A stretch of DNA of 33,630 nt from a virus (IMGVR_UViG_2541047937_000003:1-33630); one strand, 5' to 3'. Shown: positions 1 through 14,962, numbered from the stretch's first letter. The notes: generated by a model from the letters alone, not told the origin. Translations and numbers: made by a program.

Positions 1-1254
1 ATGCTGGAACAAATGGGCATTGCCGCGAAGCAAGCCTCGTATAAATTAGCGCAACTCTCCAGCCGCGAAAAAAATCGCGTGCTGGAAAAAATCGCCGATG
101 AACTGGAAGCACAAAGCGAAATCATCCTCAACGCTAACGCCCAGGATGTTGCTGACGCGCGAGCCAATGGCCTTAGCGAAGCGATGCTTGACCGTCTGGC
201 ACTGACGCCCGCACGGCTGAAAGGCATTGCCGACGATGTACGTCAGGTGTGCAACCTCGCCGATCCGGTGGGGCAGGTAATCGATGGCGGCGTACTGGAC
301 AGCGGCCTGCGTCTTGAGCGTCGTCGCGTACCGCTGGGGGTTATTGGCGTGATTTATGAAGCGCGCCCGAACGTGACGGTTGATGTCGCTTCGCTGTGCC
401 TGAAAACCGGTAATGCGGTGATCCTGCGCGGTGGCAAAGAAACGTGTCGCACTAACGCTGCAACGGTGGCGGTGATTCAGGACGCCCTGAAATCCTGCGG
501 CTTACCGGCGGGTGCCGTGCAGGCGATTGATAATCCTGACCGTGCGCTGGTCAGTGAAATGCTGCGTATGGATAAATACATCGACATGCTGATCCCGCGT
601 GGTGGCGCTGGTTTGCATAAACTGTGCCGTGAACAGTCGACAATCCCGGTGATCACAGGTGGTATAGGCGTATGCCATATTTACGTTGATGAAAGTGTAG
701 AGATCGCTGAAGCATTAAAAGTGATCGTCAACGCGAAAACTCAGCGTCCGAGCACATGTAATACGGTTGAAACGTTGCTGGTGAATAAAAACATCGCCGA
801 TAGCTTCCTGCCCGCATTAAGCAAACAAATGGCGGAAAGCGGCGTGACATTACACGCAGATGCAGCTGCACTGGCGCAGTTGCAGGCAGGCCCTGCGAAG
901 GTGGTTGCTGTTAAAGCCGAAGAGTATGACGATGAGTTTCTGTCATTAGATTTGAACGTCAAAATCGTCAGCGATCTTGACGATGCCATCGCCCATATTC
1001 GTGAACACGGCACACAACACTCCGATGCGATCCTGACCCGCGATATGCGCAACGCCCAGCGTTTTGTTAACGAAGTGGATTCGTCCGCTGTTTACGTTAA
1101 CGCCTCTACGCGTTTTACCGACGGCGGCCAGTTTGGTCTGGGTGCGGAAGTGGCGGTAAGCACACAAAAACTCCACGCGCGTGGCCCAATGGGGCTGGAA
1201 GCACTGACCACTTACAAGTGGATCGGCATTGGTGATTACACCATTCGTGCGTAA
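1..1254 (+). CDS. proA: gamma-glutamyl phosphate reductase ProA, complete 417 aa
   Basis: ORF 1..1254 translates [24 protein letters not shown]... to a TAA stop; recognised as enterobacterial ProA from memory, no search run. Window begins exactly at the ATG. Confidence 0.95.
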
Positions 1255-1368
1255 ATAAAACCGGGTGATGCAAAAGTAGCCATTTGATTCACAAGGCCAT
1301 TGACGCATCGCCCGGTTAGTTTTAACCTTGTCCACCGTGATTCACGTTCGTGAACATGTCCTTTCAGG

Positions 1369-1444
1369 GCCGATATAGCTCAGTTGGTAGAGCAGCGCAT
1401 TCGTAATGCGAAGGTCGTAGGTTCGACTCCTATTATCGGCACCA
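1369..1444 (+). tRNA. thrW: tRNA-Thr (anticodon CGU), 76 nt with CCA end
   Basis: GCCGATATAGCTCAGTTGGTAGAGCAGCGCATTCGTAATGCGAAGGTCGTAGGTTCGACTCCTATTATCGGCACCA folds as a cloverleaf (7-bp acceptor stem, GTTCGACTCC T-arm, anticodon loop TTCGTAA). An integrase gene starts 15 nt downstream, the usual attL arrangement. Confidence 0.93.
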
Positions 1445-1458
1445 TTAAAATCAATAAG

Positions 1459-2622
1459 TTACACATCATTAGTACCTTCCTTATTTTTTGACTGGGACAA
1501 ATTTGGGACCGATGGGTTCAGGATCGAGTCTATTTGCCGTGCGTGTTCGGTAAGGTGATTAGGTGCAAGGTGAGCATATCGACGAACCATTTCGATAGAC
1601 TCCCAGCCTCCCATTTCCTGTAACACTGACAACGGGACTCCGGCTTGAACCAGCCAACTTGCCCAGGTGTGTCTCAAGTCGTGAAATCTGAAATCATCAA
1701 TACCAGCCCGTCTCAGCGCCGCTTTCCAGGCTGTGTTTGCGTCATACCGCATCTTCCTTACTGTTGGCGCTTTCGTTCCGTCTGGTTTGGTACAGCTTTC
1801 CTTGTACACAAATACCCAACGGTGATGATTCCCGATTTGTTTTTTCAATACGCGACATGCAGTATCATTCAGCGCAACGCCAATTGCGCGGTTTGATTTA
1901 CTCTCTTCCGGGTTTATCCATGCCACCCGGCGCTGCATATCTATTTGTTGCCATTCAAGGTTGATGATGTTCGAGCGTCTTAAGCCTGTTGCCAGTGCAA
2001 ATTCAACAACAGACTTTAATGGCTCCGGACATTCATCAATCAGCCTTTGTGCTTCATGGGGCTCCAGCCAGCGGATCCGTTTATTCTTTGGTTGAGGCAC
2101 TTTAATAATTGGTGCCTTATCCAGCATTTTCCATTCACGCTCTGCGGCTCTTAGTAGGGCCTTTATAAATGAAAGATGCGTAGCCTTCGTTGCAACGGAC
2201 GCTGGTTTTGGCGTGTATTCTGGAACAGGTTTCCCTTTTTTTCTGCATGCTTCTGCCCTGAGTTTCCAGTTTTCCTCATGACGCCGGTTTGTCATTTTCT
2301 GCATTGCTGAATAAATTTTTGATTCAGTAATGTCTCTTAGTTGCATTCCTGCGAAATGTTGAAGCCAGAATCCGATCCGGCTTTTGTCATCGTCCAGTGA
2401 TTTTTTATGTGCTTTCTCTTCAAGCCACCTGACACACGCTTCCTCGAACGTTATATCAGGTATTTCACCAAGTTTGCTGACCCGCCATGCTTCAGCCTTT
2501 AGCTTGTCATGGAGTTCTGTCGCCTGCCTTTTGTCCTTTGTTCCAAGAGACTGTTTAAATCTTTTACCGTTCGGCAATGTGAAACTGGCGTACCATATTT
2601 CACCTCTGCGGAAGAGTGACAT
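1459..2622 (-). CDS. phage integrase, tyrosine recombinase (387 aa)
   Basis: C-terminal [39 protein letters not shown] is the tyrosine-recombinase catalytic box; directly adjacent to the tRNA; GAGGAAAG RBS upstream of the ATG. Confidence 0.9.
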
Positions 2623-2849
2623 TTTCTTTCCTCTGTTATGCCATCACCCGCGCTCACCTGGACAGTATGCAGCGGAGACTGAAGAGCCGCAATGCAGGCT
2701 TGTCGTGTTGTGAGGTAAGGAGATTTATTCTTAGTGGGATCTTTGCGTGTTGCCTGAAGACGCCCCGTGCGTATCCAGTTAATGGCAGTCGGTCTGGATA
2801 TCTTGAGAAAATGACAGGCCTCATCGAGTGTGAGGCTGTATGGCTCCAT
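2499..2849 (-). CDS. AlpA/Xis-like excisionase, HTH DNA-binding protein
   Basis: Start chosen at internal ATG ([32 protein letters not shown]...) which overlaps the upstream stop (TAATG). The 3' 124 nt overlap the integrase start, so the true C-terminus is uncertain. Confidence 0.6.
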
Positions 2850-3154
2850 TATTTCACCTCTTGTTGTGACATTGTTGAAAAATGGATACCTGCTCGTTGC
2901 TGCCAGACGATCCAACCGAGAGTCATATCCCATGCCATGTATTCGTTATCGCCGTTTTTTGCTCTCCGACGATCTACTAAGTCACCGAAACGCTTTTCCA
3001 TGAATAATTCATAAGCTTCGCGTTCATCTGGTTCTACTTCCAGAGATAGGAGTGCGATTTCATAAGCACGGCGCTCAATATCGTCTCGCACGTCAAGGCT
3101 GCTGATACGCTCTTTAATTTCTTTAATCAGTTCTTTGTCGGTAAAAGTGGTCAT
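2849..3154 (-). CDS. hypothetical early-left protein, 101 aa (YfdT-like by length and position)
   Basis: ORF with translationally coupled neighbours on both sides; charged helical sequence; family assignment from memory only. Confidence 0.55.
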   Translation of the reverse strand: MTTFTDKELIKEIKERISSLDVRDDIERRAYEIALLSLEVEPDEREAYELFMEKRFGDLVDRRRAKNGDNEYMAWDMTLGWIVWQQRAGIHFSTMSQQEVK

Positions 3155-3516
3155 TATGCTCCAGCCTCCGGTGCTTTTGGCATTACTGCCCAGTGAGTGA
3201 TATTGACGTTTTCAAGGTCCCCGACCTGAAATGTCCACTGCCATTCTCCGGTTTCTTTTTGTCCCCAGGTGTACCAGAGAGAACGCCAGCCAATTAGCCA
3301 GCCTTCTCCGTTAGCATCGAATAACAAAACACTTTCATTTGCTGGTGGCAGTTCAGTTGACACTGGTATTACTTTGTTTTCCTGTGCTGCACATTTAGCT
3401 TCAAGCGCATCGAATTTACGCACCAGGTATTCAGCATCTGTTTCATTCACTTTCAGATCTCGCGGTACACATCTCCCACGAAGAAACCCTTCCATTTCGA
3501 AAACATTCATGCGCAT
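3154..3516 (-). CDS. DUF551-like protein, 120 aa (YfdS-like)
   Basis: Trp-rich C-terminal segment (WRSLWYTWGQKETGEWQWTF...THWAVMPKAPE) resembles DUF551; start and stop overlap neighbouring genes. Confidence 0.55.
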   Translation of the reverse strand: MRMNVFEMEGFLRGRCVPRDLKVNETDAEYLVRKFDALEAKCAAQENKVIPVSTELPPANESVLLFDANGEGWLIGWRSLWYTWGQKETGEWQWTFQVGDLENVNITHWAVMPKAPEAGA

Positions 3517-4043
3517 TTGCGTAACTCCGATAACTCGTTAAAACGTTCCATAAACATCCCGTAGGCATGGCCCGGTGCCTGTGGAATCACTTTGAACATC
3601 TCTGTTGCCGGGATACCTTCCAGTACAGGCCAGAAAGAGCCATCATCAAGCCCGAGATCGCGGCGTTCGGTTGCCAGCATAATGAGATCGGCATATTTCA
3701 CTGGCGTGCTCATAACAGGAGGTAACCCGTATTTCTCACGGATTACGGCGTCTATTTTTTCTTCCATCCGTTTATAGTCAGGAAGAAGTCGTTTCAGTGG
3801 TGCGGGGATGTCCTGGCAATATGCTTCTGTTGCATCATGCATTAAAGCTTCAAAAGCAAATTCCTGTGGCACCAGCTGGCTGCAAAGCACCGCATGTTGG
3901 GCGACACTGTAGAAGTGTGAAAGATGTCCTGCAAAGCGACAGATATTTGAAAGGGAAATCGCGATATCGTTAATAACGATGTCGTCTTTATTTATCCTGT
4001 CATAATAAAAATGCTTCCCGGAAAAAGTTTTAATAAATGACAT
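3507..4043 (-). CDS. HD-domain phosphohydrolase, 178 aa (YfdR-like 5'-deoxynucleotidase)
   Basis: HD-type metal-binding motifs (...AQHAVLCSQL..., ...ALMHDATEAYCQDIP...). Start set at second ATG (MSFIKTF), which has a GGAGA RBS; the track ORF begins 27 nt further upstream. Confidence 0.65.
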   Translation of the reverse strand: MSFIKTFSGKHFYYDRINKDDIVINDIAISLSNICRFAGHLSHFYSVAQHAVLCSQLVPQEFAFEALMHDATEAYCQDIPAPLKRLLPDYKRMEEKIDAVIREKYGLPPVMSTPVKYADLIMLATERRDLGLDDGSFWPVLEGIPATEMFKVIPQAPGHAYGMFMERFNELSELRKCA

Positions 4044-4136
4044 TTTGTTCTCCACGTATATGCGCTGCACCGCGCTGAGTTTGGGTAAAAGGAAGCCCTC
4101 ACCATCCGGTGATTATTGAGTTAATTACGTTTCCAT

Positions 4137-4158
4137 AAATGCCCCCGCAGGGGCATTT
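4137..4158 (-). terminator. GC-rich hairpin between the YfdQ-like and YfdR-like genes (possible attenuator or RNA stability element)
   Basis: AAATGCCCC-cgca-GGGGCATTT, perfect 9-bp stem; only a weak T tract follows on the minus strand. Confidence 0.25.
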
Positions 4159-4170
4159 GCAGTAATGAAA

Positions 4171-4995
4171 TCAGGCGGTGAAAGTACCAATAAAGGTTTC
4201 TACTTTGCTGTCTTTGAATTTCTCAACAAGCAGATCACGAAATTCGTTAGCCATATCTTCCTGCACTGCTTCCAGCTGAATAATGCGCAGAACCAGTACA
4301 GGACGATCGCCAGTGATAATGCTGAGGCGTAATTTAAACGGACGTTCTTTCAGACCTTCAAACGGAACGCATTTAAATTCAAATGCCACTGGCATAATGT
4401 CTTTGGTCTTCGCTTCGACAGATTCCATCAGGGAGCGTTTGCCGCTGAAGTCATTATCTTCAAAATCAGCGGTCTGGTTTGCTTCAATCGTGATTTTACG
4501 GATTGCCGCAGCCGCTTTTGTTGCCTGAATGGCGTCACCATTAGCATCAAAGCCCACAAGGTAGTCGGCCCAGTCTTCAATCCATTCTGCCAGTGACTTC
4601 TGGGAGTTACGCTCGCCGTTAACAGACAACAGAGCAGAGAACGGTGCTGTCTTTTTCAGTTTGAGTGTGGCGGTGTTATCTGCGTGACCTGGTTCATCAA
4701 TAGTACCCAGGTTAAGCACACTGACGGCACGCATATTATCAGCATCGATAAAGCAGCGGGTGCCTTCATCTGCAAGATCTTTAGAATAACGGGTAAAGTC
4801 ATCGATGCTGGCAGTGGAAAGCGCACCACGGAAACGGAAGCGATTTAAATTAAATTTTTCCAGATCATGAATGCGGAAATTCTCAGGCAATGCCACAGCA
4901 TCGGCACCAATCTTACTGATAATTTCATTAACACCCTGAGCAGAAATAAGGGCATGGATTTGATTAATTGCGGTTGCGTCTAAGTTCTGAGACAT
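4171..4995 (-). CDS. YfdQ-like protein (DUF2303 family), 274 aa
   Basis: Complete ORF, typical codon usage, same length as YfdQ of CPS-53; family from memory, not verified. Confidence 0.6.
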
Positions 4996-5060
4996 AATAA
5001 GTCCTCACTATATAAAGATATTCAGTGATGAGATAAATAATCAGTTAATTAAAAACGATA

Positions 5061-5423
5061 TTAACGACCTGCTGCGCGGAGTTTTCCGTCAGGTTCACCG
5101 GCAAGAGTCAGCAACTGTCCCTGGTCTTCCTGCAGAATAGTCAGGCGACCACCGCGATTGACATACATCGGCGTTTCGGTGGTGTCTTCTTCGGAAATTT
5201 TCCCGCGGTTAGTCGGGCGAACATATGAGAGTTTGTGTTTGATTTTCACTCGGTTCTCATCAAACGGTTCGATTTCCAGGTTGAGCGAGACCTTACCTTT
5301 GGTTTTCGTGTTCATCACACCGGAAGCGACTTCACTGAGAACTGCGCCGATTTTGGTTTCAAATACGCCGCCGTCCAGCTCCCCGATAAATGCCTGCACA
5401 TCAGTACTGCGTTCGCTAGCCAT
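5061..5423 (-). CDS. hypothetical protein, 120 aa (YfdP-like), first gene of the early-left cluster
   Basis: Start set at ATG preceded by GAGGAG RBS (MASERSTDVQAFIGELDGG...); the longer 226-aa track ORF runs into GC-rich non-coding DNA. Confidence 0.6.
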   Translation of the reverse strand: MASERSTDVQAFIGELDGGVFETKIGAVLSEVASGVMNTKTKGKVSLNLEIEPFDENRVKIKHKLSYVRPTNRGKISEEDTTETPMYVNRGGRLTILQEDQGQLLTLAGEPDGKLRAAGR

Positions 5424-5891
5424 TTTGCTGCTCCTCATCATATCGACCCTGCAAGGTCGGTTAGTTTCTCCACAAAACAGAGAAGAACACCTGCGGTGGC
5501 TGCCGCCCGGATGGATTGGGTTATGAGCCCGTCGTCCGGTGATGCTCTTCTCTGTTTTGTAAAAAGGACGGTACCAGCCGGAAGCAAGGGTACAAGCTGG
5601 TACCGCCAAGACTACACACAGCATAAAGTTGTGGTGCCGGGTGCCTCCCGGTGCCTGGCGAAGGTTGCACACCAGGCGGGTGGGTATCCACAGAAGGTCG
5701 ACTGTCAGCCTCAACCTTAACCCGCGTGCGCTGAGCCGCATTCACCACAACGCTAAGGATTCTCTCTGGTTGAAAATACTTAGCTGTTATGTGCCTGCTT
5801 TTAGCCACATCAGGCGAGGTGGACCTAGTTATTCCCCAACAACAAGGATTCGGTTAATCTGGTTATCCCCAACAACGCAAAAGGAAAAGAA

Positions 5892-6326
5892 ATGTCCGGT
5901 AATATCTATACGCTGTACAAATCCCACTGTGAAAATGTTGGAAAGTATCGGGGCATTGAAATCAGTGGGGTAGTGTCATCAGTCGAAATAAGCAAAGTTG
6001 AATCAAGGGCAACATTACTTACTCTTCTGGACCTTGTCTTACATGAGCACCGGAAGAAATTCGGCACTCCCTATAATCAGTTGAATGGGAAAAAGGCTCT
6101 GGTTCACCTTATTCTGATGAAGCATCACTGGATGCCAAAACAGATTAATGAGATGAAATTTGATGAACTTCTTCTTTCAATTCAGGATGAACTCACACTT
6201 GATAAAATAAGCGTAACCGCCCAGAAATTTTTAGATTATCGAGACTGGAGATCACAAATTCATCACTTTGATGATTTTGACGAAAATGAATGGGATCCTA
6301 ATTTGTCTGCACAATATCTAAAGTAA
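5892..6326 (+). CDS. AT-rich accessory protein, 144 aa, unknown function
   Basis: ORF with AAGGAAAAG RBS; visibly lower GC than neighbours; strand opposite to the surrounding early-left genes; own intrinsic terminator at 6562..6590. Confidence 0.6.
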   Translation: MSGNIYTLYKSHCENVGKYRGIEISGVVSSVEISKVESRATLLTLLDLVLHEHRKKFGTPYNQLNGKKALVHLILMKHHWMPKQINEMKFDELLLSIQDELTLDKISVTAQKFLDYRDWRSQIHHFDDFDENEWDPNLSAQYLK

Positions 6327-6504
6327 CATCCTGTGATAAAACCGTGATTTCCTGATCCAGTTTTTTTAAGGAGTCTATTGTTTCCTGTCGATAAGACAGC
6401 ACTTCACGAAGCTGGTTTATAGCTGCCAGCTTCTTTGTCATCCACTCATAAATTTCCTCATCTGTGTAGCCAGGCGCGACGATTTTGGGTTCTGTTTTGT
6501 GCAT
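6298..6504 (-). CDS. small hypothetical protein, 68 aa, convergent with and overlapping the 144-aa gene
   Basis: ATG with GAGGAG RBS 9 nt upstream (MHKTEPKIVAPGYTDEEIYEW...); first ORF downstream of the OL operators. Confidence 0.45.
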   Translation of the reverse strand: MHKTEPKIVAPGYTDEEIYEWMTKKLAAINQLREVLSYRQETIDSLKKLDQEITVLSQDVTLDIVQTN

Positions 6505-6561
6505 TTCACATCTCCTCAAGTTATCAGTTACTTGTTGATGGGGACCAGATTGTTAAAGAGC

Positions 6562-6590
6562 TAAGCGTCCTGTAGGGCGCTTTTTTGTTG
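6562..6590 (+). terminator. rho-independent terminator
   Basis: AGCGTCC-tgta-GGGCGCT stem (one G-U pair) followed by TTTTTTG. Confidence 0.6.
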
Positions 6591-6752
6591 CTAACGAATC
6601 ATCCTGGACTTCATATGCCCCAGGCGGCTACTTCGTGGGCGTCCTGCCTGTTCGTTTTTGACATTTACTGACTGCTTACGACACATGCACCGTGTTGCAA
6701 CCAGATTTTGTTGTAATCCTGTAGTTGGTCTGGAACAAAAGATAAAATTAAA

Positions 6753-6789
6753 TTGCGAGATATGCAAGTGGTATTTGCGAGATATGCAA
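6753..6789. promoter_or_regulatory. two tandem 15-bp operator copies (OL-like), TTGCGAGATATGCAA at 6753..6767 and 6775..6789
   Basis: Identical 15-mers with palindromic TTGCG...GCAA ends, 22-bp centre-to-centre, just beyond the cI terminator; a third related copy is at 7557..7571 between cI and cro. Confidence 0.6.
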
Positions 6790-6799
6790 ATTTATAGGT

Positions 6800-6825
6800 A
6801 ATAAAAAGCCACCTTTCGGTGGCCG
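6800..6825 (-). terminator. rho-independent terminator of the cI-like gene
   Basis: GCCACC-tttc-GGTGGC hairpin (6808..6823) followed on the minus strand by TTTTTAT; lies 20 nt after the cI stop. Confidence 0.7.
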
Positions 6826-6843
6826 ATGGATGGGATATTGAGG

Positions 6844-7536
6844 TTAATTATGTCTCTTAAGGGTTTGCGACTGACTGATTAAGACCTTTCCAAAGACCAT
6901 GAATCGGTGTTCGTTTTCGCTAGTAATTCCCCATTCACGGTAAATCTGGTTATCAGAAATCACCAGCAGTTTGTCAGGAATCATTTGAAGTCTTTTAACG
7001 TATATTTTGTCATCAAAACCAAAGACATATATACCATCACCATCAAACTGATTGATGCTGACATCAACGAAGATGAGATCTCCTGGCTCAATGGTTGGAC
7101 ACATACTGTCCCCACGAACGTTGATAACTTTGATGTGATTGGCTGGTCGTCCGCCGAACATTGATACAGCATTATCAGTTCTGTATTCGATGGCATGAAT
7201 CACATCAATGACATCACCGCCCTGGATAAGGCCATTTCCCGCACTGGCACTGATATCCAGCATTTCAATACGGAACACATCCTTCACCTGCGCAACATCC
7301 TCATTATTACTGTTTTTATATACAGTATTACTTTTGTGGGCAGAGGTAAAGAGATCAGCAATATCAACACCTAAGCTCTTGGCAATATTACTCAGTGTTT
7401 GTTCGGTAAATTGTTTTTGCTTACCCGTTTCTAAGCGCGAGATGTTCGCCGCATCTACTCCTATCGCTTCAGCGAGATCGGCGATTTTCATGTTCTTCGC
7501 TTGGCGAAGTTGTCTGACTCGGTTTCCTATGTTCAT
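6844..7536 (-). CDS. cI-type repressor, N-terminal HTH plus C-terminal S24 LexA-like peptidase domain (230 aa)
   Basis: N-terminus MNIGNRVRQLRQAKNMKIADLAEAIGVDAANISRLETGKQ (HTH); C-terminus GDSMCPTIEPGDLIFVD...YVKRLQ (Ser/Lys dyad); divergent from a cro-like gene. Confidence 0.85.
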   Translation of the reverse strand: MNIGNRVRQLRQAKNMKIADLAEAIGVDAANISRLETGKQKQFTEQTLSNIAKSLGVDIADLFTSAHKSNTVYKNSNNEDVAQVKDVFRIEMLDISASAGNGLIQGGDVIDVIHAIEYRTDNAVSMFGGRPANHIKVINVRGDSMCPTIEPGDLIFVDVSINQFDGDGIYVFGFDDKIYVKRLQMIPDKLLVISDNQIYREWGITSENEHRFMVFGKVLISQSQTLKRHN

Positions 7537-7633
7537 GCGTTTATTACATTTCTTTATTGCGTGATAAGCAAATCAACTTGCGCAAAATAATTGCGTGAAA
7601 TAACATGCATAACGCGCAATATTTGGAGGGCGT
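7537..7633. promoter_or_regulatory. divergent cI/cro promoter-operator region (OR/PR/PRM equivalent)
   Basis: Contains TTGCGTGATAAGCAA (7557..7571), palindromic TTGCGCAA (7578..7585) and further TTGCG/CGCAA half-sites; candidate PR -35 TTGCGC (7578..7583) and -10 TAACAT (7601..7606) with 17-bp spacer; GGAGGG RBS before cro. Confidence 0.6.
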
Positions 7634-7894
7634 ATGCAATCACCATTACGAAATGTGCGTAAGGCGCATGGTTTCACTTTGCAGCATGTTGCTGCGGGTG
7701 TTCAAGTCAATCCAGCGACGTTGAGTCGTATTGAGAGGCTGGAGCAGATTCCATCTATCGAGCTTGCAGAACGTTTAGCCAATTTTTTTAAGGGTGAAGT
7801 CAGCGAAATGCAGATTCTTTATCCGGCACGTTTTCAATCTAGCCAAAACCAGAATGGGTTTAAACCACAGGAACAGGAGGTGAACCGTGGGTAA
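7634..7894 (+). CDS. Cro-like HTH regulator, 86 aa
   Basis: HTH segment FTLQHVAAGVQVNPATLSRIERLEQIPSIELAERLANFF; divergent from the cI-like gene. Confidence 0.7.
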   Translation: MQSPLRNVRKAHGFTLQHVAAGVQVNPATLSRIERLEQIPSIELAERLANFFKGEVSEMQILYPARFQSSQNQNGFKPQEQEVNRG

Positions 7895-8438
7895 GCATCA
7901 CTGGAAAGTAGAAAAACAGCCTGAGTGGTACGTGAAAGCTGTCAGAAAAACTATCGCAGCGTTGCCGGGGGGGTACGCTGAAGCTGCTGACTGGCTGGAT
8001 GTAACAGAGAACGCATTATTTAACCGCCTTCGTGCCGATGGCGATCAGATTTTCCCGCTGGGATGGGCAATGATTTTGCAACGTGCTGGTGGAACTCACT
8101 TCATTGCTGACGCTGTGGCGCAGTCTGCAAATGGCGTCTTTGTGTCTCTTCCTGATGTCGAGGATGTGGACAACGCCGATATCAACCAACGCCTGCTGGA
8201 GGTCATTGAACAGATCGGCAGTTATTCAAAACAGATTCGTTCAGCAATTGAAGACGGTGTAGTGGAACCGCATGAGAAGACAGCAATTAACGACGAGCTG
8301 TACCTCTCAATTTCGAAGCTGCAGGAGCATGCAGCACTGGTCTACAAAATTTTTTGCATTTCAGAAAGTAATGACGCCCGCGAGTGTGCAGCTCTGGGCG
8401 CCGTGGCGTGTCGTGACTGTGGAGAAACTAACGCATGA
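7887..8438 (+). CDS. hypothetical early-right protein, 183 aa (possibly CII-like or YdaT-like regulator)
   Basis: Start overlaps cro stop; C-terminal Cys cluster ([14 protein letters not shown]); family not recognised with confidence. Confidence 0.5.
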
Positions 8439-8793
8439 ACAGTTTAACAACACACTACCGTCGCTCGCAACTGATTGCGCTTCCTGTACCGGGTGGAAAA
8501 GCGAAGGTGGAGTATTGCTATGCAGTAAATGTACCAGGTGGCAGGGTAATTGTAACCCACAGCTTTGCAGAGTGGGCTGTGGGTGATTTTAACCGGCAAA
8601 AGGAGACAGTCCTTTGCGACAAGTTAACCGCTGGTTCAAAGATCACTACGGAGTACCCGTCAGAGTCATTCGTTGGGAGCCGGAAACACAACGGGTTATC
8701 TACCTCCGTGAAGGCTATGAGCATGAGTGCTTCAGCCCGCTCGAACAGTTTCGTCGTAAATTCAGGGAAATAGAGGTCGGTCATGAGCACTAA
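8435..8793 (+). pseudogene. hypothetical gene with apparent frame change: protein-like N-terminal part in one frame (8435..about 8610), protein-like C-terminal part in another (8614..8793)
   Basis: Track ORF 8435..8773 has a plausible first 59 aa then S/T-rich low-complexity tail; the other frame from TTG 8614 (AAGGAG-like RBS GGAGA at 8602..8606) gives [59 protein letters not shown] and ends overlapping the O-like start. Confidence 0.35.
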
Positions 8794-9724
8794 ATTAACC
8801 GGCTATGTATGGGATGGTTGCGCAGCGTCAGGCATGAAATTATCCAGCGTGGCAATTATGGCCCGCCTGGCTGATTTCAGTAATGACGAAGGTGTGTGCT
8901 GGCCATCAATTGAAACCATTGCCCGTCAGATTGGCGCGGGGATGAGTACCGTCAGGACGGCTATCGCACGGCTGGAAGCAGAAGGCTGGTTAACGCGTAA
9001 GGCGCGTCGCCAGGGTAACCGCAATGCGTCGAATGTTTATCAGCTTAACGTTGCGAAGCTTCAGGCAGCGGCATTTTCTCAACTGTCAGATTCTGACCCG
9101 TCAAAATCTGACGCATCAAAATCTGACCCGTCAAAATTTGATGCGTCGAAATCTGGCAAAAAAGCGGGTTTTCACCCGTCAGAATCTGGCGGGGATCCGT
9201 CAGTAAAATCAAAACATGATCCGTCAGATAAAAAACCTTCTCGTCCGGACGCTTCGCAACCGGACACGCAGACGGATGAACAGGATTTTTTAACTCGCCA
9301 TCCTGATGCGGTTGTATTCAGCCCTAAAAAGCGCCAGTGGGGAACGCAGGATGATTTGACCTGCGAACAGTGGCTCTGGAAAAAAATCATCGCCCTGTAC
9401 GAGCAAGCCGCCGAATGTGACGGCGAGGTGGTTCGTCCCAAAGAACCGAACTGGACAGCCTGGGCAAACGAAATTCGCCTAATGTGTGTGCAGGATGGTC
9501 GTACTCACAAACAAATCTGCGAGATGTACAGCCGCGTCAGCCGCGATCCGTTCTGGTGCCGTAACGTGCTCAGCCCGTCGAAGCTGCGGGAAAAATGGGA
9601 TGAGCTTTCCCTGCGCTTATCACCGTCCGTCAGCACGTACACCGAAAAACGCGAAGACCCGTACTTCAAATCCAGTTACGACAACGTGGACTACAGCCAG
9701 ATCCCGGCAGGATTCAGGGGGTGA
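8783..9724 (+). CDS. replication initiator, lambda O-like (N-terminal wHTH, iteron-encoded low-complexity linker), 313 aa
   Basis: N-terminal HTH (WPSIETIARQIGAGMSTVRTAIARLEAEGWL); central SDSDPSKSDASKSDPSKFDASKS repeats encoded by DNA iterons; position between cro region and rusA. Confidence 0.65.
   Translation: MSTKLTGYVWDGCAASGMKLSSVAIMARLADFSNDEGVCWPSIETIARQIGAGMSTVRTAIARLEAEGWLTRKARRQGNRNASNVYQLNVAKLQAAAFSQLSDSDPSKSDASKSDPSKFDASKSGKKAGFHPSESGGDPSVKSKHDPSDKKPSRPDASQPDTQTDEQDFLTRHPDAVVFSPKKRQWGTQDDLTCEQWLWKKIIALYEQAAECDGEVVRPKEPNWTAWANEIRLMCVQDGRTHKQICEMYSRVSRDPFWCRNVLSPSKLREKWDELSLRLSPSVSTYTEKREDPYFKSSYDNVDYSQIPAGFRG
9083..9236. repeat. iteron cluster (putative origin of replication) inside the O-like gene
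   Basis: At least four tandem 15-bp repeats CCGTCAAAATCTGAC / GCATCAAAATCTGAC / CCGTCAAAATTTGAT / GCGTCGAAATCTGGC, then an A-rich stretch and three more degenerate CCGTCAG copies. Confidence 0.65.
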
Positions 9725-9726
9725 TC

Positions 9727-10129
9727 ATGAGTCTTTTGAATGAAGTTCAGAAATTCATTGAAGCCCATCCGGGGTGTACTTCCGGAGACATTGCGGATGC
9801 TTTTGCAGGTTACTCACGGCAGCGCGTTCTGCAGTCAGCAAGCAAGTTACGTCAGAGTGGGCGTGTGGCTCACCGTTGTGAAGGAGATACACGCAGACAT
9901 TTCCCACGCCTGCCGTTCAGTGAATGCAGCGGTAGAGCATCTTCGTGCACTGGAGAAAAAAGGCGTCATCACGATAAAGCGTGGCGTGGCCCGGGGGATA
10001 ACGCTTCATACCGCGGTGAAGGACGACGACAGCGAGGCGGTCGGGATTATCCGCGCACTGCTTGCCGGTGAGGAAAACGCCAGGCTGCGTGCAGCCCACT
10101 GGTTACATGAGAGAGGCCTGAAAGTATGA
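9727..10129 (+). pseudogene. LexA-N-terminal-type winged-helix DNA-binding gene, reading frame interrupted (+1 shift or ~97-nt insert between 9817 and 9913)
   Basis: One frame gives MSLLNEVQKFIEAHPGCTSGDIADAFAGYS (LexA helix 1-2 pattern), another gives RSVNAAVEHLRALEKKGVITIKRGVARGITLH (LexA recognition helix and wing). They are contiguous in LexA but 97 nt apart and out of frame here. The two track ORFs 9721..10071 and 9740..10129 each have an Arg-rich or odd half. Confidence 0.4.
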
Positions 10130-10515
10130 AGCTGATCTTGCCTTTCCCGCCCAGCGTGAACACGTACTGGCGACACCCCAACAAAGGGGCGTTTGCTGGT
10201 AAGAGTCTGATAAGCGCGGCGGGGCGAAAATTCCAGAGCGCGGCGTGCGCAGCAATAGTTGAGCAGTTACGTCGTCTGCCGAAACCAACGTCGGCACCTG
10301 CTTCAGTGGAGATCGTGTTGTTTCCTCCGGATAACCGGATCCGCGATCTGGACAACTATAACAAGGCGCTGTTTGACGCCCTGACCCACGCGGGTGTGTG
10401 GGAAGACGACAGTCAGGTGAAAAGAATGCTGGTGGAGTGGGGACCGGTTATCCCGGAAGGGAAGGTCGAGATCACTATCAGTAAGTACGAGAAAACGGCG
10501 GGTGCAGCCGCCTGA
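10126..10515 (+). CDS. rusA: RusA-family Holliday junction resolvase, 129 aa
   Basis: LPFPPSVNTYWRH N-terminus and DLDNYNKALFDALTHAGVWEDD acidic catalytic region typical of RusA; nin-region position. Confidence 0.8.
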   Translation: MKLILPFPPSVNTYWRHPNKGAFAGKSLISAAGRKFQSAACAAIVEQLRRLPKPTSAPASVEIVLFPPDNRIRDLDNYNKALFDALTHAGVWEDDSQVKRMLVEWGPVIPEGKVEITISKYEKTAGAAA

Positions 10516-10534
10516 TCAAGAGGAGAAACGAAGT

Positions 10535-10795
10535 ATGAATAATCTGATGGTCATTGATGGTATTGAAGTTCGTCGTGATACTTATGGGCGTTACAGCCTG
10601 AACGATCTGCACAGGGCTGCCGGTTCTCTGGATAAGCATAAGCCTGCATTCTGGCTCCGCAATGAGCAAACTGAACGTTTAATAAGCGAGTTGCAGATTT
10701 GCAACTCGGTCAATATAGAGCCAGTTAACGTTATTCGTGGCGGAAATAACCAGGGGACGTATGTCTGCAAAGAACTGGTGTACCGTGGCATTTGA
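10535..10795 (+). CDS. KilA-N domain protein, 86 aa
   Basis: MNNLMVIDGIEVRRDTYGRYSLNDLHRAAGS...KPAFWLRNEQTERLISEL matches the KilA-N/Bro-N pattern; start set at ATG with AGGAGA RBS. Confidence 0.55.
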   Translation: MNNLMVIDGIEVRRDTYGRYSLNDLHRAAGSLDKHKPAFWLRNEQTERLISELQICNSVNIEPVNVIRGGNNQGTYVCKELVYRGI

Positions 10796-10884
10796 AGAGA
10801 AGTATGGTTCCCAGCTGGAGCTGATATTTCGTTTTATCGATCGTGCGCTGGCAATAGGCGTACTGGCGTAAGTGGAGAACGAGC

Positions 10885-11637
10885 ATGAACCTTGAAGCCT
10901 TACCGAAATATTACTCCCCGAAATCTCCAAAACTGAGCGATGACGCACCGGCGACAGGCTCTGGTGGTTTAACGATTACGGATGTGATGGCTGCGCAGGG
11001 GATGGTGCAGTCGAAAGCACCGCTTGGGTTTGCCTTATTCCTGGCAAAAGTTGGTGTTCAGGATCCTCAGTTTGCGATTGAAGGTCTGCTCAATTACGCG
11101 ATGGCACTGGATAACCCGACATTGAATAAATTGAGTGAAGAAACCCGGCTACAGATCATTCCTTACCTTGTGAATTTTGCCTTTGCTGATTATTCCAGGT
11201 CTGCGGCAAGTAAGGCTCGCTGTGAGCATTGTGCTGGTACTGGATTTCATAATGTATTGCGCGAAGTGGTGAAACACTCCAGAAGCGGGGAGTCTGTTAT
11301 CAAGGAAGAGTGGGTGAAGGAACTATGTCAGCATTGTCATGGTAAGGGAGAAGTCAGCACAGCGTGCAGAGGGTGTAAGGGTAAAGGTATTGTCCTGGAT
11401 GAAAAAAGAACCCGGCTTCATGGTACGCCTGTTTATAAGATTTGTGGGCGTTGCAATGGAAAACGGTTTAGTCGTTTACCAACCACACTGGCGCGGCATC
11501 ATGTCCAGAAACTGGTACCAGACCTGACGGATTATCAGTGGTACAAAGGATATGCAGATGTCATTGATAAACTGGTTACAAAGTGCTGGCAGGAGGAATC
11601 TTACGCTGAAGCACAATTGAGAAAGGTGACAAGATAA
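10885..11637 (+). CDS. putative late-gene regulator in the Q (antiterminator) position; protein with four CxxCxGxG Zn-finger repeats, 250 aa
   Basis: CEHCAGTG, CQHCHGKG, CRGCKGKG, CGRCNGKR repeats; last early-right gene before the late terminator and lysis cassette. Q assignment is positional. Confidence 0.4.
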   Translation: MNLEALPKYYSPKSPKLSDDAPATGSGGLTITDVMAAQGMVQSKAPLGFALFLAKVGVQDPQFAIEGLLNYAMALDNPTLNKLSEETRLQIIPYLVNFAFADYSRSAASKARCEHCAGTGFHNVLREVVKHSRSGESVIKEEWVKELCQHCHGKGEVSTACRGCKGKGIVLDEKRTRLHGTPVYKICGRCNGKRFSRLPTTLARHHVQKLVPDLTDYQWYKGYADVIDKLVTKCWQEESYAEAQLRKVTR

Positions 11638-11744
11638 GTGATCTTCGCCGAAAATGGTGACATCATGCTTGCAATTTTCAAAAAAACATGGATAAGATTT
11701 TCTCAACGATGGGCTTTATGTATCTGCTGTTGATAACCTTCAAG

Positions 11745-11770
11745 AACTCGCCATTGAGCGGGTTTTTTAT
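11745..11770 (+). terminator. candidate late-leader terminator (tR'-like) downstream of the Q-like gene
   Basis: CTCGC-cattga-GCGGG hairpin (one G-U pair) followed by TTTTTTATT; a TATAAT hexamer follows at 11805..11810. Confidence 0.3.
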
Positions 11771-11840
11771 TGTGTAAAAACAGAATGACGGTATTAATTA
11801 GTAATATAATTATTCGACCATACAACTAGGGGTCGAAAAA

Positions 11841-12626
11841 ATGTATGTTTTTGAGTTAATCAAGCCAGGCAGTAATCTTAAGTTTGAAAACAGAGAGTTA
11901 GAATGGACGTTTAATAACTTATTATCCCATTTAGAAACTGCATTTTATGATGCTAATGTAGCATTAAATTTATTCGAACAGGAAAGAACTAAGAATAACA
12001 GTAAATTCGATAATATTTCTCAGACATGGCAAGCTGATGTACAGAAACGACAAGCACTGGAAATGCTGGTTCGTAAAGAGTTTGGTTATCAACCTTATGA
12101 ATATTCAGAACAGGTTTTTTCAGAGGTCGAGCTACGTCTAAAAAGAGAAAAATGGAATAACGGTGAATATCCGTTGGCTCATCAACACAGATTGATCTTC
12201 TTACATGCAAAATCATTTCTCTACGCTTTGGATGCTATTGATAAATTTTTAAAGGTAATTTCAAAAGAAAATGGCGCGCCAGAGAACATTAAAAAATTGC
12301 ATGAACAGCTTTCTAAAGACTTTCCGAATTTAAGAAAGGTAAGGAATTCAGCTCAACACATGGAAGACAGAGTTCGTGGGCTTGGTGCAGAGAAAGAACC
12401 AAAGCCAATAAAACTCAAACCTGTAAATAATATTCATGTTGTTGCACCTCAGGGGGCATTGATGTTGAATAACTTATTCGGAACTAAATTTGGGTGCACT
12501 ATGGCTGATGGCTATTATGGTGAAGTAGATATTTCGACAGAGTCTTTGGCAAAGTTGCAAAATTTAATCCAAAAAGTTTTTAATTCCTTCAGTTGGGAAG
12601 GACCAAAGCAACACCTTCCCCGATAA
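11841..12626 (+). CDS. AT-rich moron protein, 261 aa, unknown function; contains an R-x4-H motif (RNSAQH, aa 168-173): candidate abortive-infection/defence protein
   Basis: Complete ORF with AGGGG RBS; markedly AT-rich with atypical codon usage; sits between the Q-like gene and the holin; followed by a perfect bidirectional terminator. Confidence 0.6.
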   Translation: MYVFELIKPGSNLKFENRELEWTFNNLLSHLETAFYDANVALNLFEQERTKNNSKFDNISQTWQADVQKRQALEMLVRKEFGYQPYEYSEQVFSEVELRLKREKWNNGEYPLAHQHRLIFLHAKSFLYALDAIDKFLKVISKENGAPENIKKLHEQLSKDFPNLRKVRNSAQHMEDRVRGLGAEKEPKPIKLKPVNNIHVVAPQGALMLNNLFGTKFGCTMADGYYGEVDISTESLAKLQNLIQKVFNSFSWEGPKQHLPR

Positions 12627-12630
12627 CATT

Positions 12631-12675
12631 TTCTTTTTTATTGAAAGCCGCCAAATAATTGGCGGCTTTTTTATT
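12631..12675. terminator. bidirectional rho-independent terminator
   Basis: Perfect 11-bp stem AAAGCCGCCAA / TTGGCGGCTTT (12644..12654, 12659..12669), 4-nt loop, T tracts on both sides. Confidence 0.8.
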
Positions 12676-12715
12676 TCACAGTACCCGCAAATATCGCGAG
12701 GTGAGAGATGACGAA

Positions 12716-13042
12716 ATGCCTCATAACCCAAATACCTGGCTGGACTTGGTCCAGAGCTGGTGGCGTGGAGACACACCGCTGGGCGCAGTGATTATGTCGA
12801 TTGTTATGGCTGGCTTGCGCATTGCATATTTTGGCGGTGGTGGGGGCTGGAAACGAAAAACACTCGAGATTTTGCTCTGTGGTGCTCTGACGCTGACTTT
12901 TGCATCCGCTCTTGAGTATGTCGGATGGCCTAAATCTCTTTCTGTTGCCATTGGTGGTGGCGTTGGGTTGATCGGTGTCGATGCTATTCGTGGGGCTGCA
13001 ATGAGTGTAATCGGTAATAAGTTTGGTGGCTCTAAGGAGTAA
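12716..13042 (+). CDS. holin, 108 aa, three predicted TM segments
   Basis: Hydrophobic segments LGAVIMSIVMAGLRIAYF, TLEILLCGALTLTFASAL, LSVAIGGGVGLIGVDAI; immediately upstream of the endolysin; start set at ATG with GAGGTGAGAG RBS (track ORF starts at a TTG inside the terminator). Confidence 0.7.
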   Translation: MPHNPNTWLDLVQSWWRGDTPLGAVIMSIVMAGLRIAYFGGGGGWKRKTLEILLCGALTLTFASALEYVGWPKSLSVAIGGGVGLIGVDAIRGAAMSVIGNKFGGSKE

Positions 13043-13045
13043 TTT

Positions 13046-13522
13046 ATGCAGGTACTAAATTCCCAGCGTAAAGCTTTCCTTGATATGGTGGCTTGGTCAG
13101 AAGGAACGGATAACGGACGACAACCGACACGTAACCACGGTTATGACGTTATTGTCGGTGGTGAACTCTTCACTGATTACTCCGATCACCCTCGCAAACT
13201 TGTCACGCTAAACCCGAAACTCAAGTCAACAGCCGCCGGACGTTACCAGCTTCTTTCACGCTGGTGGGATGCTTACCGTAAACAGCTTGGCCTGAAAGAT
13301 TTTTCTCCAGAAAGCCAGGACGCTGTAGCTCTGCAGCAGATTAAAGAGCGTGGCGCTTTACCGATGATTGACCGCGGCAATATTCGTCAGGCAATCGACC
13401 GTTGCAGCAATATCTGGGCGTCGTTACCAGGTGCAGGTTACGGTCAGTATGAACATAAAATCGGCGACCTGATTGCCCGATTTAAAGAGGCTGGTGGGGT
13501 AGTAAATGAAGCTGAGATATAA
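13046..13522 (+). CDS. endolysin, lambda R-type lytic transglycosylase, 158 aa
   Basis: NSQRKAFLDMVAWSEGTDNGRQPTRNHGYDVIVGGELFTDYSDHPRKLVTLNPKLKST... is near-identical to lambda R as I recall it; same length. Confidence 0.92.
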   Translation: MQVLNSQRKAFLDMVAWSEGTDNGRQPTRNHGYDVIVGGELFTDYSDHPRKLVTLNPKLKSTAAGRYQLLSRWWDAYRKQLGLKDFSPESQDAVALQQIKERGALPMIDRGNIRQAIDRCSNIWASLPGAGYGQYEHKIGDLIARFKEAGGVVNEAEI

Positions 13523-13898
13523 GCTGGTTATTGTTGCCTTCTTTGTTACCGTCATTGGTTCCTTCATCTGGTCTGTCGGGCATTACTACAGCAAATATCA
13601 GCACGAAAAGGAGCGTGCTGATGAGGCTGTACGAAATGCTGAATCGGCAACTGCCATTACCAATAACGTCCTGCAATCAATACAAATCGTAAATACAGCA
13701 CTGGAGGCTAGCCAGCATGCAAAACAACAAATCGCACTGGAGTCACAGAGAACCCAGGAAGATATCAAAGTGGCTGTTGCGAATGATGATTGCGCTTCAC
13801 GTCCTGTGCCTGCTGCCGCTACTGACCGGTTGCGGAAGTACGCGGACAGTTTACGTGAGCACCCCAGTAGCACCACTGTCAACCACCCTAACTTCTGA
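13506..13898 (+). CDS. Rz-like i-spanin, 130 aa
   Basis: N-terminal TM anchor (LVIVAFFVTVIGSFIWSV) then helical region; start overlaps the endolysin stop; contains an Rz1-like ORF in the +1 frame. Confidence 0.6.
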   Translation: MKLRYKLVIVAFFVTVIGSFIWSVGHYYSKYQHEKERADEAVRNAESATAITNNVLQSIQIVNTALEASQHAKQQIALESQRTQEDIKVAVANDDCASRPVPAAATDRLRKYADSLREHPSSTTVNHPNF

Positions 13899-14031
13899 AA
13901 CACCGATTCCAATTATACCTAGTCCACTGACATATGGTGCTAGCCTAGACCTGAATGCAAGTTTGTTATCTGCATTAGGGCAGTGCAATAGAGATAAAAA
14001 GGCTATCCGCAGTATAAACAATGCTAGATGA
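13783..14031 (+). CDS. Rz1-like o-spanin lipoprotein
   Basis: +1 frame relative to Rz; signal peptide with lipobox LLTGC (MMIALHVLCLLPLLTGCGS), Pro-rich mature part; extends 133 nt beyond Rz. Start uncertain (13717 or 13783). Confidence 0.5.
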   Translation: MMIALHVLCLLPLLTGCGSTRTVYVSTPVAPLSTTLTSETPIPIIPSPLTYGASLDLNASLLSALGQCNRDKKAIRSINNAR

Positions 14032-14109
14032 AGATTTTAATTTAAATTGAAGATGCCTATTACTAGACATCTTTATAATTTATGCTCAAACCAAAGTGGA
14101 TTTGTAATA

Positions 14110-14484
14110 TTAAAGACTATTTAGGAGACTCTGAATAATAGGCCATAAAGTTAATGTGTTTGCACCAGCTGAGTAAAATCGCTCCATCAGTTGTAGAGGT
14201 GTTGATGACTGATTAAACTTGATATCATTTAAAATGTCGTATATTTCTTGTAGCTTCTCTGCACCAAGTTTATCGTTAATTTCACTTAAGTTATTTTGTA
14301 TGGCGATTTCTGCTTCTTTTATAAGCCGAACTGTTTCTGCTGAGTAATGAATATTGTTGGAAAGAAAAGTATTAGCTGAATCAATAATTTCATAACCAAC
14401 ATCAGCACCAAATGATTTGTTTCCAATTATTTTGATGTTTTCGCATCCCTCAATGCGATAAGCAACGGTTTTCTTTTCACTCAT
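14110..14484 (-). CDS. AT-rich reverse-strand moron protein, 124 aa, unknown function
   Basis: Complete ORF on the strand opposite to the late genes, between Rz1 and HNH (the position lambda bor occupies); strongly AT-rich; no signal peptide or TM segment seen. Confidence 0.55.
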   Translation of the reverse strand: MSEKKTVAYRIEGCENIKIIGNKSFGADVGYEIIDSANTFLSNNIHYSAETVRLIKEAEIAIQNNLSEINDKLGAEKLQEIYDILNDIKFNQSSTPLQLMERFYSAGANTLTLWPIIQSLLNSL

Positions 14485-14611
14485 GTTATAACCTGTGTTT
14501 AGTTACTTTTATTAGAACCTTGTTATCAGATTTTTCTCATAAAGGAAAGAGTGAAAGAGAAAAATGAATCTCTTTTGTCAAATATGTCTATCAGATTAAA
14601 GAGAGTATTTT

Positions 14612-14962
14612 ATGCCAGCACTGATACCTAGAGCCTGCCGTGTTCGCGGCTGCCACCATACCACTACTGACCCGTCAGGCTATTGTGAAAGCCATAAAAG
14701 CGAAGGCTGGAAGCAATACAAGCCAGGCCAGTCCCGTCATCAGCGCGGCTACGGTTCGAAGTGGGACAGTATCCGCGCGCGCGTCCTGAAGCGTGACAAA
14801 GGTTTATGTCAGTTATGTCTGCGTGCCGGTGTGGTGCGTGAAGCTAAAACCGTTGACCACATCATCCCTAAAGCGCATGGCGGCACCGATGCAGACAGTA
14901 ATCTGCAGAGCCTGTGCTGGCCGTGCCATAAGACGAAGACGGCCCGTGAACGGCTAAAGTGA
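14612..14962 (+). CDS. HNH endonuclease (terminase-associated), 116 aa
   Basis: CRVRGCHHTT...CQLCLRAG...VDHIIPKAHGGTDADSNLQSLCWPCH: HNH core with two CxxC pairs; immediately upstream of terS. Confidence 0.85.
   Translation: MPALIPRACRVRGCHHTTTDPSGYCESHKSEGWKQYKPGQSRHQRGYGSKWDSIRARVLKRDKGLCQLCLRAGVVREAKTVDHIIPKAHGGTDADSNLQSLCWPCHKTKTARERLK

Follow-up and report, generated by a model that had tools for sequence, protein, structure and literature searches.

The viral DNA stretch IMGVR_UViG_2541047937_000003:1-33630 (33,630 nucleotides, referred to in its entirety as the window) represents an SfV/SfIV/CPS-53-like lambdoid prophage, and beside its immunity region lie two small convergent genes, here called A and B, that overlap at their 3' ends. 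Comparison of this locus with its relatives provides good support for the idea that A and B form a conserved, portable two-gene unit of enterobacterial temperate phages, which is mobile as a convergent pair. A further proposal, for and against which we find the case about evenly balanced, is that a conserved mobile module is represented at this locus by one of its copies, in which A, expressed in the lysogen and having a lysogen-specific role, would be silenced by antisense transcription from the promoter PL. An original prediction made from the sequence of the window had described the two open reading frames (ORFs), one of 144 amino acids (aa) on the plus strand and one of 68 aa on the minus strand, with a convergent overlap of 29 nucleotides (nt); we find both ORFs and the overlap as it gave them, and its treatment of this immunity-adjacent pair as a module is upheld by the conservation of the convergent overlap across genera and insertion sites. 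The features concerned are as follows.

5892..6326, plus strand: gene A, encoding a 144-aa ECs1072-family protein, antisense to the PL operon; ATG start, with the ribosome-binding site AAGGA upstream
6298..6504, minus strand: gene B, encoding a 68-aa YdfC-family small protein, the first ORF of the PL transcript; GAGGAG 7 nt before the ATG
6298..6326, both strands: 3' overlap of A and B, 29 nt; the B stop codon TAG (CTA on the plus strand) is at the ancestral Trp codon of the shared TGGGATCCCA 'W-D-P' palindrome

Contrary to the original prediction, neither protein is beyond recognition: both belong to families that are already named (ECs1072 and YdfC), but that have no known function. The product of A passes the curated cut-off of NCBIfam model NF033230, 'ECs1072 family phage-associated protein' (157.8 bits, the cut-off being 70; E 1.7e-46; residues 4-144 align with positions 2-142 of the 142 in the profile), and matches phrog_5286 (E 1.5e-90). 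It has the traits of its family, namely a single domain, a length of ~145-155 aa, the motifs R..L...L, KAL.H and W, and a C-terminal EWDP, which is retained in the most distant homologues; residues R39, L46, L50, L70, H72, W80, I85 and W134 are invariant in an alignment of 36 sequences. An exhaustive hidden Markov model search of 1.8 billion representatives placed the family in 115 clusters at 50% identity, all with single-domain representatives and none offering an informative domain fusion, and the 61 clusters for which source names were displayed all come from Enterobacterales. A first-round scan of viral contigs with the A alignment returned only copies that were 100% identical and added no diversity. 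The AlphaFold2 model of A is confident and all-alpha (predicted local distance difference test score 88.5, predicted template-modelling score 0.85), a soluble helical bundle with no transmembrane segment. No structural relative was found in PDB or BFVD, profile searches of PDB sequences gave no match, and Pfam yielded none at E <= 1. A literature search on ECs1072, STMMW_20121 (the Salmonella gene discussed below) and exclusion by the SfIV/SfV immunity region found no functional study, although ECs1072 was detected in a Sakai microarray.

Gene B matches phrog_1744 (E 6e-35), and over 66 of its 68 residues it is 41% identical to the annotated YdfC of Qin-type dicBF operons. Its place in the YdfC family is indicated both by this full-length homology and by its promoter-proximal position in a leftward early operon beside the repressor gene; in the phages Tritos and PPompW, too, YdfC is encoded downstream of dicA. 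YdfC has been described as the third small ORF of the Qin dicBF operon, of unknown function (PMC5069750). The original prediction held that homology of either ORF to an ordinary early phage gene would tell against an antisense module; the homology of B to YdfC is now evident, and is outweighed by the comparative evidence for the module presented below. Proteins of the B family (68-90 aa) have an N-terminal motif P-x-[IF]-x3-G-x3-E-x-[LI]-x2-W followed by a coiled-coil helix, and the AlphaFold2 model of B correspondingly has an extended N-terminal motif and then one helix (residues 15-67), coiled-coil in character. A profile search of PDB sequences with B found only designed coiled coils, and the Pfam matches were sub-threshold coiled-coil matches at chance level. 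Automatic ORF calling stretches B to a TTG at 6519, which falls within the GAGGAG Shine–Dalgarno sequence of the ATG. Searches of Pfam, PADLOC and NCBIfam for a functional domain in A or B found none, the sole NCBIfam name being the uncharacterized NF033230 for A.

The pair recurs widely. By tblastn, distant homologues of A were found in Salmonella ST64B and Klebsiella phages, where they are unannotated and lie on the strand opposite the late genes. In ST64B, Klebsiella, Serratia, two Photorhabdus loci and Providencia, the A homologue (24-35% identity) converges on and overlaps a small minus-strand ORF; in all, the convergent pair was seen in seven hand-checked lineages (A identity 24-58%), E. 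coli prophages being also represented. The distant partner ORFs, which correspond to phrog_3501, carry an N-terminal (Q)PYFFNPGMtxEqLEDWL and a coiled-coil region alignable with B, and the Serratia partner also matches phrog_1744 (E 1.4e-4); a BLASTP match (E 1e-4) likewise links B to the phrog_3501 type. Overlaps are of 71-95 nt in the distant lineages, and the relative reading frame is identical in all seven that were checked by hand; among IMG/VR contigs with a full A, the overlap (71-110 nt) is convergent and in the same frame in 34 of 34. In comparison locus L181, with A 58% identical and B again of 68 aa, the overlap is 50 nt in the same frame, and the pair adjoins cI and a P22-type cro gene. 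The namesake of the A family, ECs1072 (now ECs_5703) of Sakai Sp4, faces an unannotated convergent ORF (MSNDKKLTLSVYENSPHIWRGGLSDVELAEWL...) that matches the B profile (E 3.4e-5).

One palindrome, TGGGNNCCCA, holds the Trp codons of both proteins in most lineages and is read as W-D-P on both strands; in distant pairs this sequence encodes WDP, WVP or WAP in both proteins. The version in the window is TGGGATCCTA, in which a CCC-to-CCT change, silent in A, has turned the TGG of B into TAG, and so B stops precisely where the ancestral Trp was encoded. In a natural variant, P0165, the position of the B stop is occupied by TGG, giving ...QTNWDP... there. Since even the most distant homologues of A retain EWDP, the constraint on the shared W-D-P region probably comes mainly from A. 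The locus provides a clean natural case of long-term overlapping coding on opposite strands, with W-D-P in both proteins specified by one palindrome, and with a single silent change in A truncating B in the lineage of the window.

The pair occupies several kinds of site. It follows PL in the window and in SfIV, Kati, 569R4 and L181; it is in the PR operon of Sakai Sp4, where ECs1072 lies antisense between a cII-like gene and O; and it is between Q and the holin gene in ST64B, Klebsiella, Serratia, Photorhabdus and Providencia. More distant A homologues are found antisense just after cro (L185) and antisense in the early operon of a possibly P2-like prophage (L183). In every case B has the direction of the lytic operon, to which A is opposed. 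Two of the PR-operon loci have a long B-like ORF that is annotated in neither record: the ORFs at 2709..3182 (minus strand) of L185 and 29114..29674 (plus strand) of L188 (Sakai Sp4) are stop-free for ~150-170 codons and, if translated, would overlap A in antisense by ~265-310 nt.

In the window the pair sits between yfdP and cI, and the segments on either side of it (5750..5890 and 6530..6664) are conserved. Of 5426 complete E. coli genomes, 407 have the full cassette; a further ~1500 match the query region in part, with other cargo between, the shared parts in those sampled being one or both of the flanks. The site is a cargo-swap hotspot beside the immunity region. In L097 the alternative cargo is an unrelated 171-aa plus-strand protein, and in L098 it comprises small minus-strand genes, one for a protein with a ClpX C4-type zinc finger, together with a gene for a BRCT-domain protein. 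The slot equivalent to window 5822..6530 is occupied in E. coli FRIK1989 (L099, 1612..2071) and in SfV (L003) by different DNA again; in L099, an unannotated plus-strand ORF of 81 aa (1612..1857) with a good ribosome-binding site faces an annotated orf33-like 98-aa ORF (1775..2071, minus strand), with an overlap of 83 nt, so this SfV-type cargo may represent another case of two genes that converge and overlap, neither of them related to A or B.

The history of the pair is clearest at the Q–holin site. Among 80 viral contigs with a phrog_3501-type B, a full convergent A is present in 34, a deletion remnant of A on the opposite strand in 45, and neither was detected in one; with full or remnant A at the same place, the pair is ancestral in the phrog_3501-type clade of B, A being the part that is lost. 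B alone was considered as the ancestral state of this site, and rejected because such loci carry A remnants. The remnants lie opposite the 3' end of an intact B, as in SKA5 (L094) and 118970_sal3 (L095), at ~2690..3050 on the minus strand. This SKA5-type lineage is widespread in E. coli and Salmonella phages (it accounts for the 45 contigs), and in it the WDP of B has drifted to WES or RES.

Evidence for transcription of A in lysogens comes from Salmonella. The ST64B pair is orthologous to that of the window (A 29% identical, E 5e-16; B related, E 1e-4) and likewise converges and overlaps in the same frame, but it lies between Q and holin rather than beside cI, and its B differs in being of 85 aa, with a WDPSPL tail, a 71-nt overlap and a position behind a late-type promoter. 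Owen et al. (2020) mapped prophage transcription in S. Typhimurium D23580, where STMMW_20121 is at 2090066..2090500 (435 nt), beside holin, and STMMW_20131 at 2090430..2090789 (PMC7067206). The sizes of these genes and their 71-nt overlap are exactly those of ST64B A and sb50 (the ST64B B gene). STMMW_20121 was found to have its own promoter, active in almost all conditions and antisense to lytic genes, and was named as a candidate accessory or regulatory gene; the text available to us does not describe its partner gene or the overlap (PMC7067206). Table S5 of the same source gives 61-269 transcripts per million (TPM) for ST64B A in 16 of 17 conditions (the exception being late stationary phase, with 4.9) and 23-258 TPM for B, with neighbouring genes mostly below 10 TPM (holin 0.1-33, the gene upstream 1.5-7, Q 0.8-4.6; PMC7067206). 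From these values, transcripts of both strands, on which the original prediction had made its antisense interpretation depend, exist for the orthologous pair in lysogens. For the window, the upstream region of which differs and has no recognizable sigma-70 promoter, we infer lysogenic expression of A.

Sequences that may direct this transcription can be recognized in part. An extended -10 element (TGnTAnnnT) ~36 nt before the ATG of A is conserved in ST64B, Klebsiella and Serratia, and one Photorhabdus locus has a similar TGnTATTCT ~32 nt upstream. Just upstream of B, ST64B also has a strong promoter-like site (TTGAAA-16-TATGAT), and between the start of A and holin it has a terminator on the minus strand; the arrangement suggests that ST64B A lies within a leader of the PR'-to-tR' type. 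The window has a different element upstream of A, which precedes A in L181 and the unrelated plus-strand cargo in L097, and it has two candidate terminators.

5822..5877, plus strand: conserved upstream element with tandem GGTTATyCCCCAACAAC repeats, kept in L181 and L097; candidate promoter or regulatory region of A
6408..6441, plus strand: candidate first terminator of A, inside the coding sequence of B; hairpin 6408..6433, tail UUUGUCAU
6550..6561, minus strand: rrn-type boxA-like sequence GCTCTTTAACAA (a sequence match) in the PL leader, adjoining the following hairpin
6563..6590, plus strand: canonical intrinsic terminator with an 8-base-pair (bp) stem and U6; hairpin 6563..6582, then TTTTTTGTTG; the stem is followed by UUUUUUGUUG

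Where might the transcript of A end? The original prediction placed the terminator of A at 6562..6590, with the 3' untranslated region (UTR) of A fully antisense to B. A plus-strand terminator is indeed present at 6563..6590, but A does not have it to itself: it is part of the right-hand flank conserved at the hotspot and is unchanged behind the different plus-strand cargo of L097. Its hairpin has an energy of -11.5 kcal/mol on the plus strand; on the minus strand, where a G.U pair becomes a C.A mismatch, it is weaker for that reason, at -7.5 kcal/mol (centroid -3.9). The hairpin at 6408..6433, inside B, is stronger (-15.6 kcal/mol, z-score -4.3), with a weaker U tail, and analogous plus-strand hairpins with U-runs are found inside B in ST64B (L004, 3760..3780) and Serratia (L088, 3377..3399), 45 nt and 32 nt, respectively, after the stop codon of A. 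There are thus embedded terminator candidates in three lineages, and because of the earlier hairpin a 3' UTR of A that reaches 6590 is a possible reading, but not the only one.

The conserved element at 6550..6590 might instead be mainly an antitermination site of the PL leader, with a nut- or rrn-like boxA and a hairpin, in which case A would end at the hairpin inside B and its transcript would cover only ~110-145 nt of B. We consider this doubtful, though it has substantial points in its favour, notably the boxA-like sequence adjoining the hairpin on the minus strand, the embedded terminators 45-80 nt downstream of A in three lineages, and the conservation of the element independently of A. 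The boxA-like sequence agrees at 12 of 13 bases with the rrn boxA, and the window contains two matches (the site and its mirror copy) where 0.26 would be expected, a number reached or exceeded in six of 100 shuffles. Nevertheless, the hairpin is markedly better on the plus strand, which alone has the perfect U6 tract; the plus-strand gene of L097 stops 26 nt short of the boxA-like sequence lying ahead of its 6563-type terminator; no N-like gene was noticed in the window; and the roles of terminator and antitermination site are compatible with each other. The element may therefore act in the PL leader as well, as an N-independent antitermination site.

How might such a pair work? In the antisense module that we propose, A would be a moron-type accessory gene with its own promoter, transcribed against a major lytic transcription unit, and B is the promoter-proximal gene of that unit, which depends on PL in the window, on PR in Sakai Sp4, and on a Q-dependent late promoter in ST64B-like phages; the two converge and share their last 29-110 nt in a constant relative frame. 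The status of A as a moron is suggested by its opposite orientation, its terminators, its presence or absence at the hotspot and its base composition (38% G+C, compared with 41% for B and 47% for the surrounding arm of the window, so that the original prediction rightly called it AT-rich); the start site of its own expected of a moron is documented only for the ST64B orthologue, the window having no recognizable promoter. In a lysogen, PL would be shut by CI, and A would be transcribed as far as the hairpin inside B or the terminator at 6563..6590, the latter additionally guarding OL and cI against read-through. When PL fires, on induction or infection, polymerases would cross B and then the whole of A in antisense, and A would be silenced by transcriptional collision and the formation of RNA duplexes while B was being produced; B might additionally act on or with A. 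The module would in this way sense and respond to the state of the neighbouring lytic promoter. Its likeliest role would be a lysogen-specific function that is switched off, or countered by B, during lytic growth of the carrier, for example superinfection exclusion or abortive infection with self-immunity.

Several observations weigh against this proposal. As to expression, no match to a sigma-70 promoter could be recognized upstream of A in the window, and the extended -10 element of the ST64B type is absent there. Transcription of B in ST64B lysogens is about as strong as that of A (PMC7067206), and B is therefore a poor fit to a simple antidote made only in the lytic cycle. The terminator at 6563..6590 is common to other cargo and overlaps the boxA-like leader element. 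The B-like partners in L183 and L185 are weak profile matches (hhalign E 1e-3 and 2e-3, probability 13-21%). Nothing among PADLOC, Pfam, PDB or BFVD relatives ties A to defence. Lastly, the two genes can be found apart: L180 has A without B, and with a hairpin of its own, which led us to reject the idea that A always needs B; Qin-type dicBF operons have YdfC with no A and no A remnant; and SKA5-type phages have kept B after the loss of A. Neither gene strictly requires the other.

Separability is likewise the strength of the main rival explanation, that A and B are coincidental neighbours, A being a self-contained moron, with its own promoter and terminator, that enters permissive promoter-proximal intergenic hotspots, B an ordinary early or late leader gene, and their overlap a tolerated by-product without regulatory or functional meaning. 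This would accord with unrelated cargo in either orientation at a swap hotspot, with A alone in L180 and B alone in Qin-type operons, with the decay of A beside an intact B at 45 of 80 loci, and with a terminator that serves further cargo. We nevertheless think it rather improbable, as the overlap, the frame and the shared W-D-P codons persist down to 24% identity of A, at three or four genomic sites and with constant orientation relative to the lytic promoter. Independent insertions would not have recreated overlap, frame and orientation, and so the pair must have travelled as a unit.

Less probable again, and in our view distinctly unlikely, is that A and B are a protein toxin–antidote or abortive-infection pair, with A a growth-inhibiting effector, B its protein antagonist, and the convergent layout serving only to set their ratio. 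The tight linkage of two small genes would suit this idea, as would the transcription of both in ST64B lysogens, the retention of B after loss of A (in the manner of many orphan antitoxins) and the predicted coiled coil of B, which would be suited to binding a protein. However, with B behind the CI-repressed PL, a lysogen would make A without B, yet the cassette is stable in the 407 E. coli genomes that carry it; A stands alone in L180; and no toxin–antitoxin (TA) or defence family is matched. Type II TA genes are co-directional and co-transcribed and have TA domains, in contrast to A and B, which are convergent, are not co-transcribed and have no such domains. Type I systems of Bacillus prophages, such as txpA/RatA and bsrG/SR4, are convergent units overlapping at their 3' ends, in which each RNA is antisense to the other; these, however, pair a non-coding RNA with a small hydrophobic toxin peptide, whereas A and B are two conserved, soluble proteins, and do not fall in that class. 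Finally, that one of the ORFs is not a real gene, and the pair an artefact of ORF calling, could be argued from inconsistent annotation (SfIV lacks the 68-aa coding sequence (CDS), ST64B the 144-aa one, and Sp4 the B-like one), but is scarcely credible in view of the good ribosome-binding sites of both, the conserved motifs in 61 A and 236 B protein clusters, confident structure models for both, and the EWDP kept in distant members of the A family.

If the proposed antisense module is compared with known systems, there is a parallel in logic with the exclusion genes of lambdoid phages. P22 and lambda sieB (with esc and the sas antisense RNA) and lambda rexAB are expressed in lysogens and lie close to the immunity region; transcription of sieB opposes that from PL, and P22 owes its self-immunity to an antisense RNA together with a second product, Esc. 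The logic we suggest for A and B is, by analogy, that of sieB/esc/sas, and exclusion with self-immunity would be compatible with the wiring and neighbourhood of the pair. There are also differences: the second product of sieB comes from an internal start, whereas the partner of A is a separate convergent gene, and SieB is a membrane protein, whereas A is modelled as soluble, all-alpha and without a transmembrane segment. No relation to these genes by sequence or family was found: neither A nor B matches SieB in Pfam or PHROG, and they are not of the SieB type; nor do they, or the two genes downstream, belong to a known anti-phage defence system, as judged from PADLOC-DB 2.0 (no family at E <= 1). 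BstA of prophage BTP1, with its aba element, resembles what is proposed for A in being expressed in lysogeny from beside the repressor gene and in having a built-in means of sparing its carrier phage, and came to light through the same transcriptomic approach (PMC7067206); unlike the arrangement in the window, the self-immunity of BstA resides in a DNA element inside the gene and not in a convergent protein gene. No homology of A to BstA was found, and A has no match in the PADLOC library, the coverage of which for BstA was not checked.

A broader and more tentative idea, which we would call unlikely as it stands, is that the pair is a portable state-sensing module of prophages, of a kind so far unrecognized, that can be inserted immediately downstream of any major lytic promoter (PL, PR, PR' and possibly early promoters of the P2 type), A being on in the lysogen and off in the lytic cycle of the carrier through antisense transcription and the B coiled coil. 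If that were so, it would amount to an exclusion or abortive-infection system of a new type, with self-immunity built in, or else to a new way of locking lytic development. The cassette is in any case common, being found in E. coli, in serotype-converting phages of Shigella, in Salmonella ST64B and in Klebsiella prophages. Two 'hypothetical proteins' have become a concrete, testable candidate for a function that is specific to the lysogen and tied to the lytic/lysogenic switch, because their genes travel as a convergent overlapping unit, have a fixed orientation to the lytic promoter, and include an A that is transcribed in ST64B lysogens.

The other features of the immunity region, and the second copy of the pair in the window, are these.

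6753..6789, both strands: OL, with two copies of TTGCGAGATATGCAA; PL is directed leftwards from it
6844..7536, minus strand: cI (S24 peptidase and helix-turn-helix)
7634..7894, plus strand: cro, followed by a cII/YmfL-like gene
27041..27739, both strands: mirror copy of the whole A/B module, in the other arm of the perfect inverted repeat of the window

The 15-bp operator motif TTGCG-N5-DGCAW is restricted to OL (6753 and 6775), OR (7557 and 7605) and their mirror copies; about one match would be expected by chance, and none of 100 shuffles reached eight. On the minus strand, B is accordingly the first ORF to follow OL downstream, as had been predicted. The left side of the module has yfdP, yfdQ (DUF2303) and HD-hydrolase genes, each transcribed from the minus strand, and likeness to SfIV-type phages stops at ~6664, where the immunity type switches. 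The window as a whole is a giant perfect inverted repeat, 1..15829 being the exact reverse complement of 17802..33630 (no mismatches), with arms of 15.8 kb around a unique centre of 1972 bp (15830..17801); every feature of the left arm is mirrored, including a tRNA gene (1369..1441 and 32190..32262). This looks like a fold-back artefact of assembly, the alternative being a real inverted duplication.

Between yfdP and A is a GC-rich, non-coding region over which two long ORFs extend (5061..5741, minus strand, and 5629..5973, plus strand). These are annotated as CDSs in SfIV (SfIV_34 and SfIV_35), but are probably spurious: the conserved yfdP homologue spans only 5064..5426, and the rest of 5061..5741 is a structured RNA region. 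There is a match there to the STnc100/PasD-like prophage small RNA (sRNA) at 5558..5781 on the minus strand, over the full length of the model (43.4 bits, the gathering score being 47; E 1e-7), and a weak DicF-like match at 5566..5620; both lie in the PL operon, with gene A on one side and yfdP on the other. The layout is like that of ydfC–dicF in Qin, where YdfC is similarly the product of a promoter-proximal small ORF in a leftward early operon beside the repressor gene (ydfA-ydfB-ydfC-dicF-dicB), DicF occupying the place downstream that is taken in the window by the STnc100/PasD-like RNA. The only sigma-70 consensus match in 5000..8000 (TTGGCA-16-CAGAAT, 6138..6111, minus strand) is inside A and antisense to it, directed toward the sRNA region. 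The 334-nt stretch 5427..5760 folds far more stably than its shuffled versions (z-score -4.9), and a long hairpin within it, as judged by eye, is apparently kept in L181 with an altered stem sequence.

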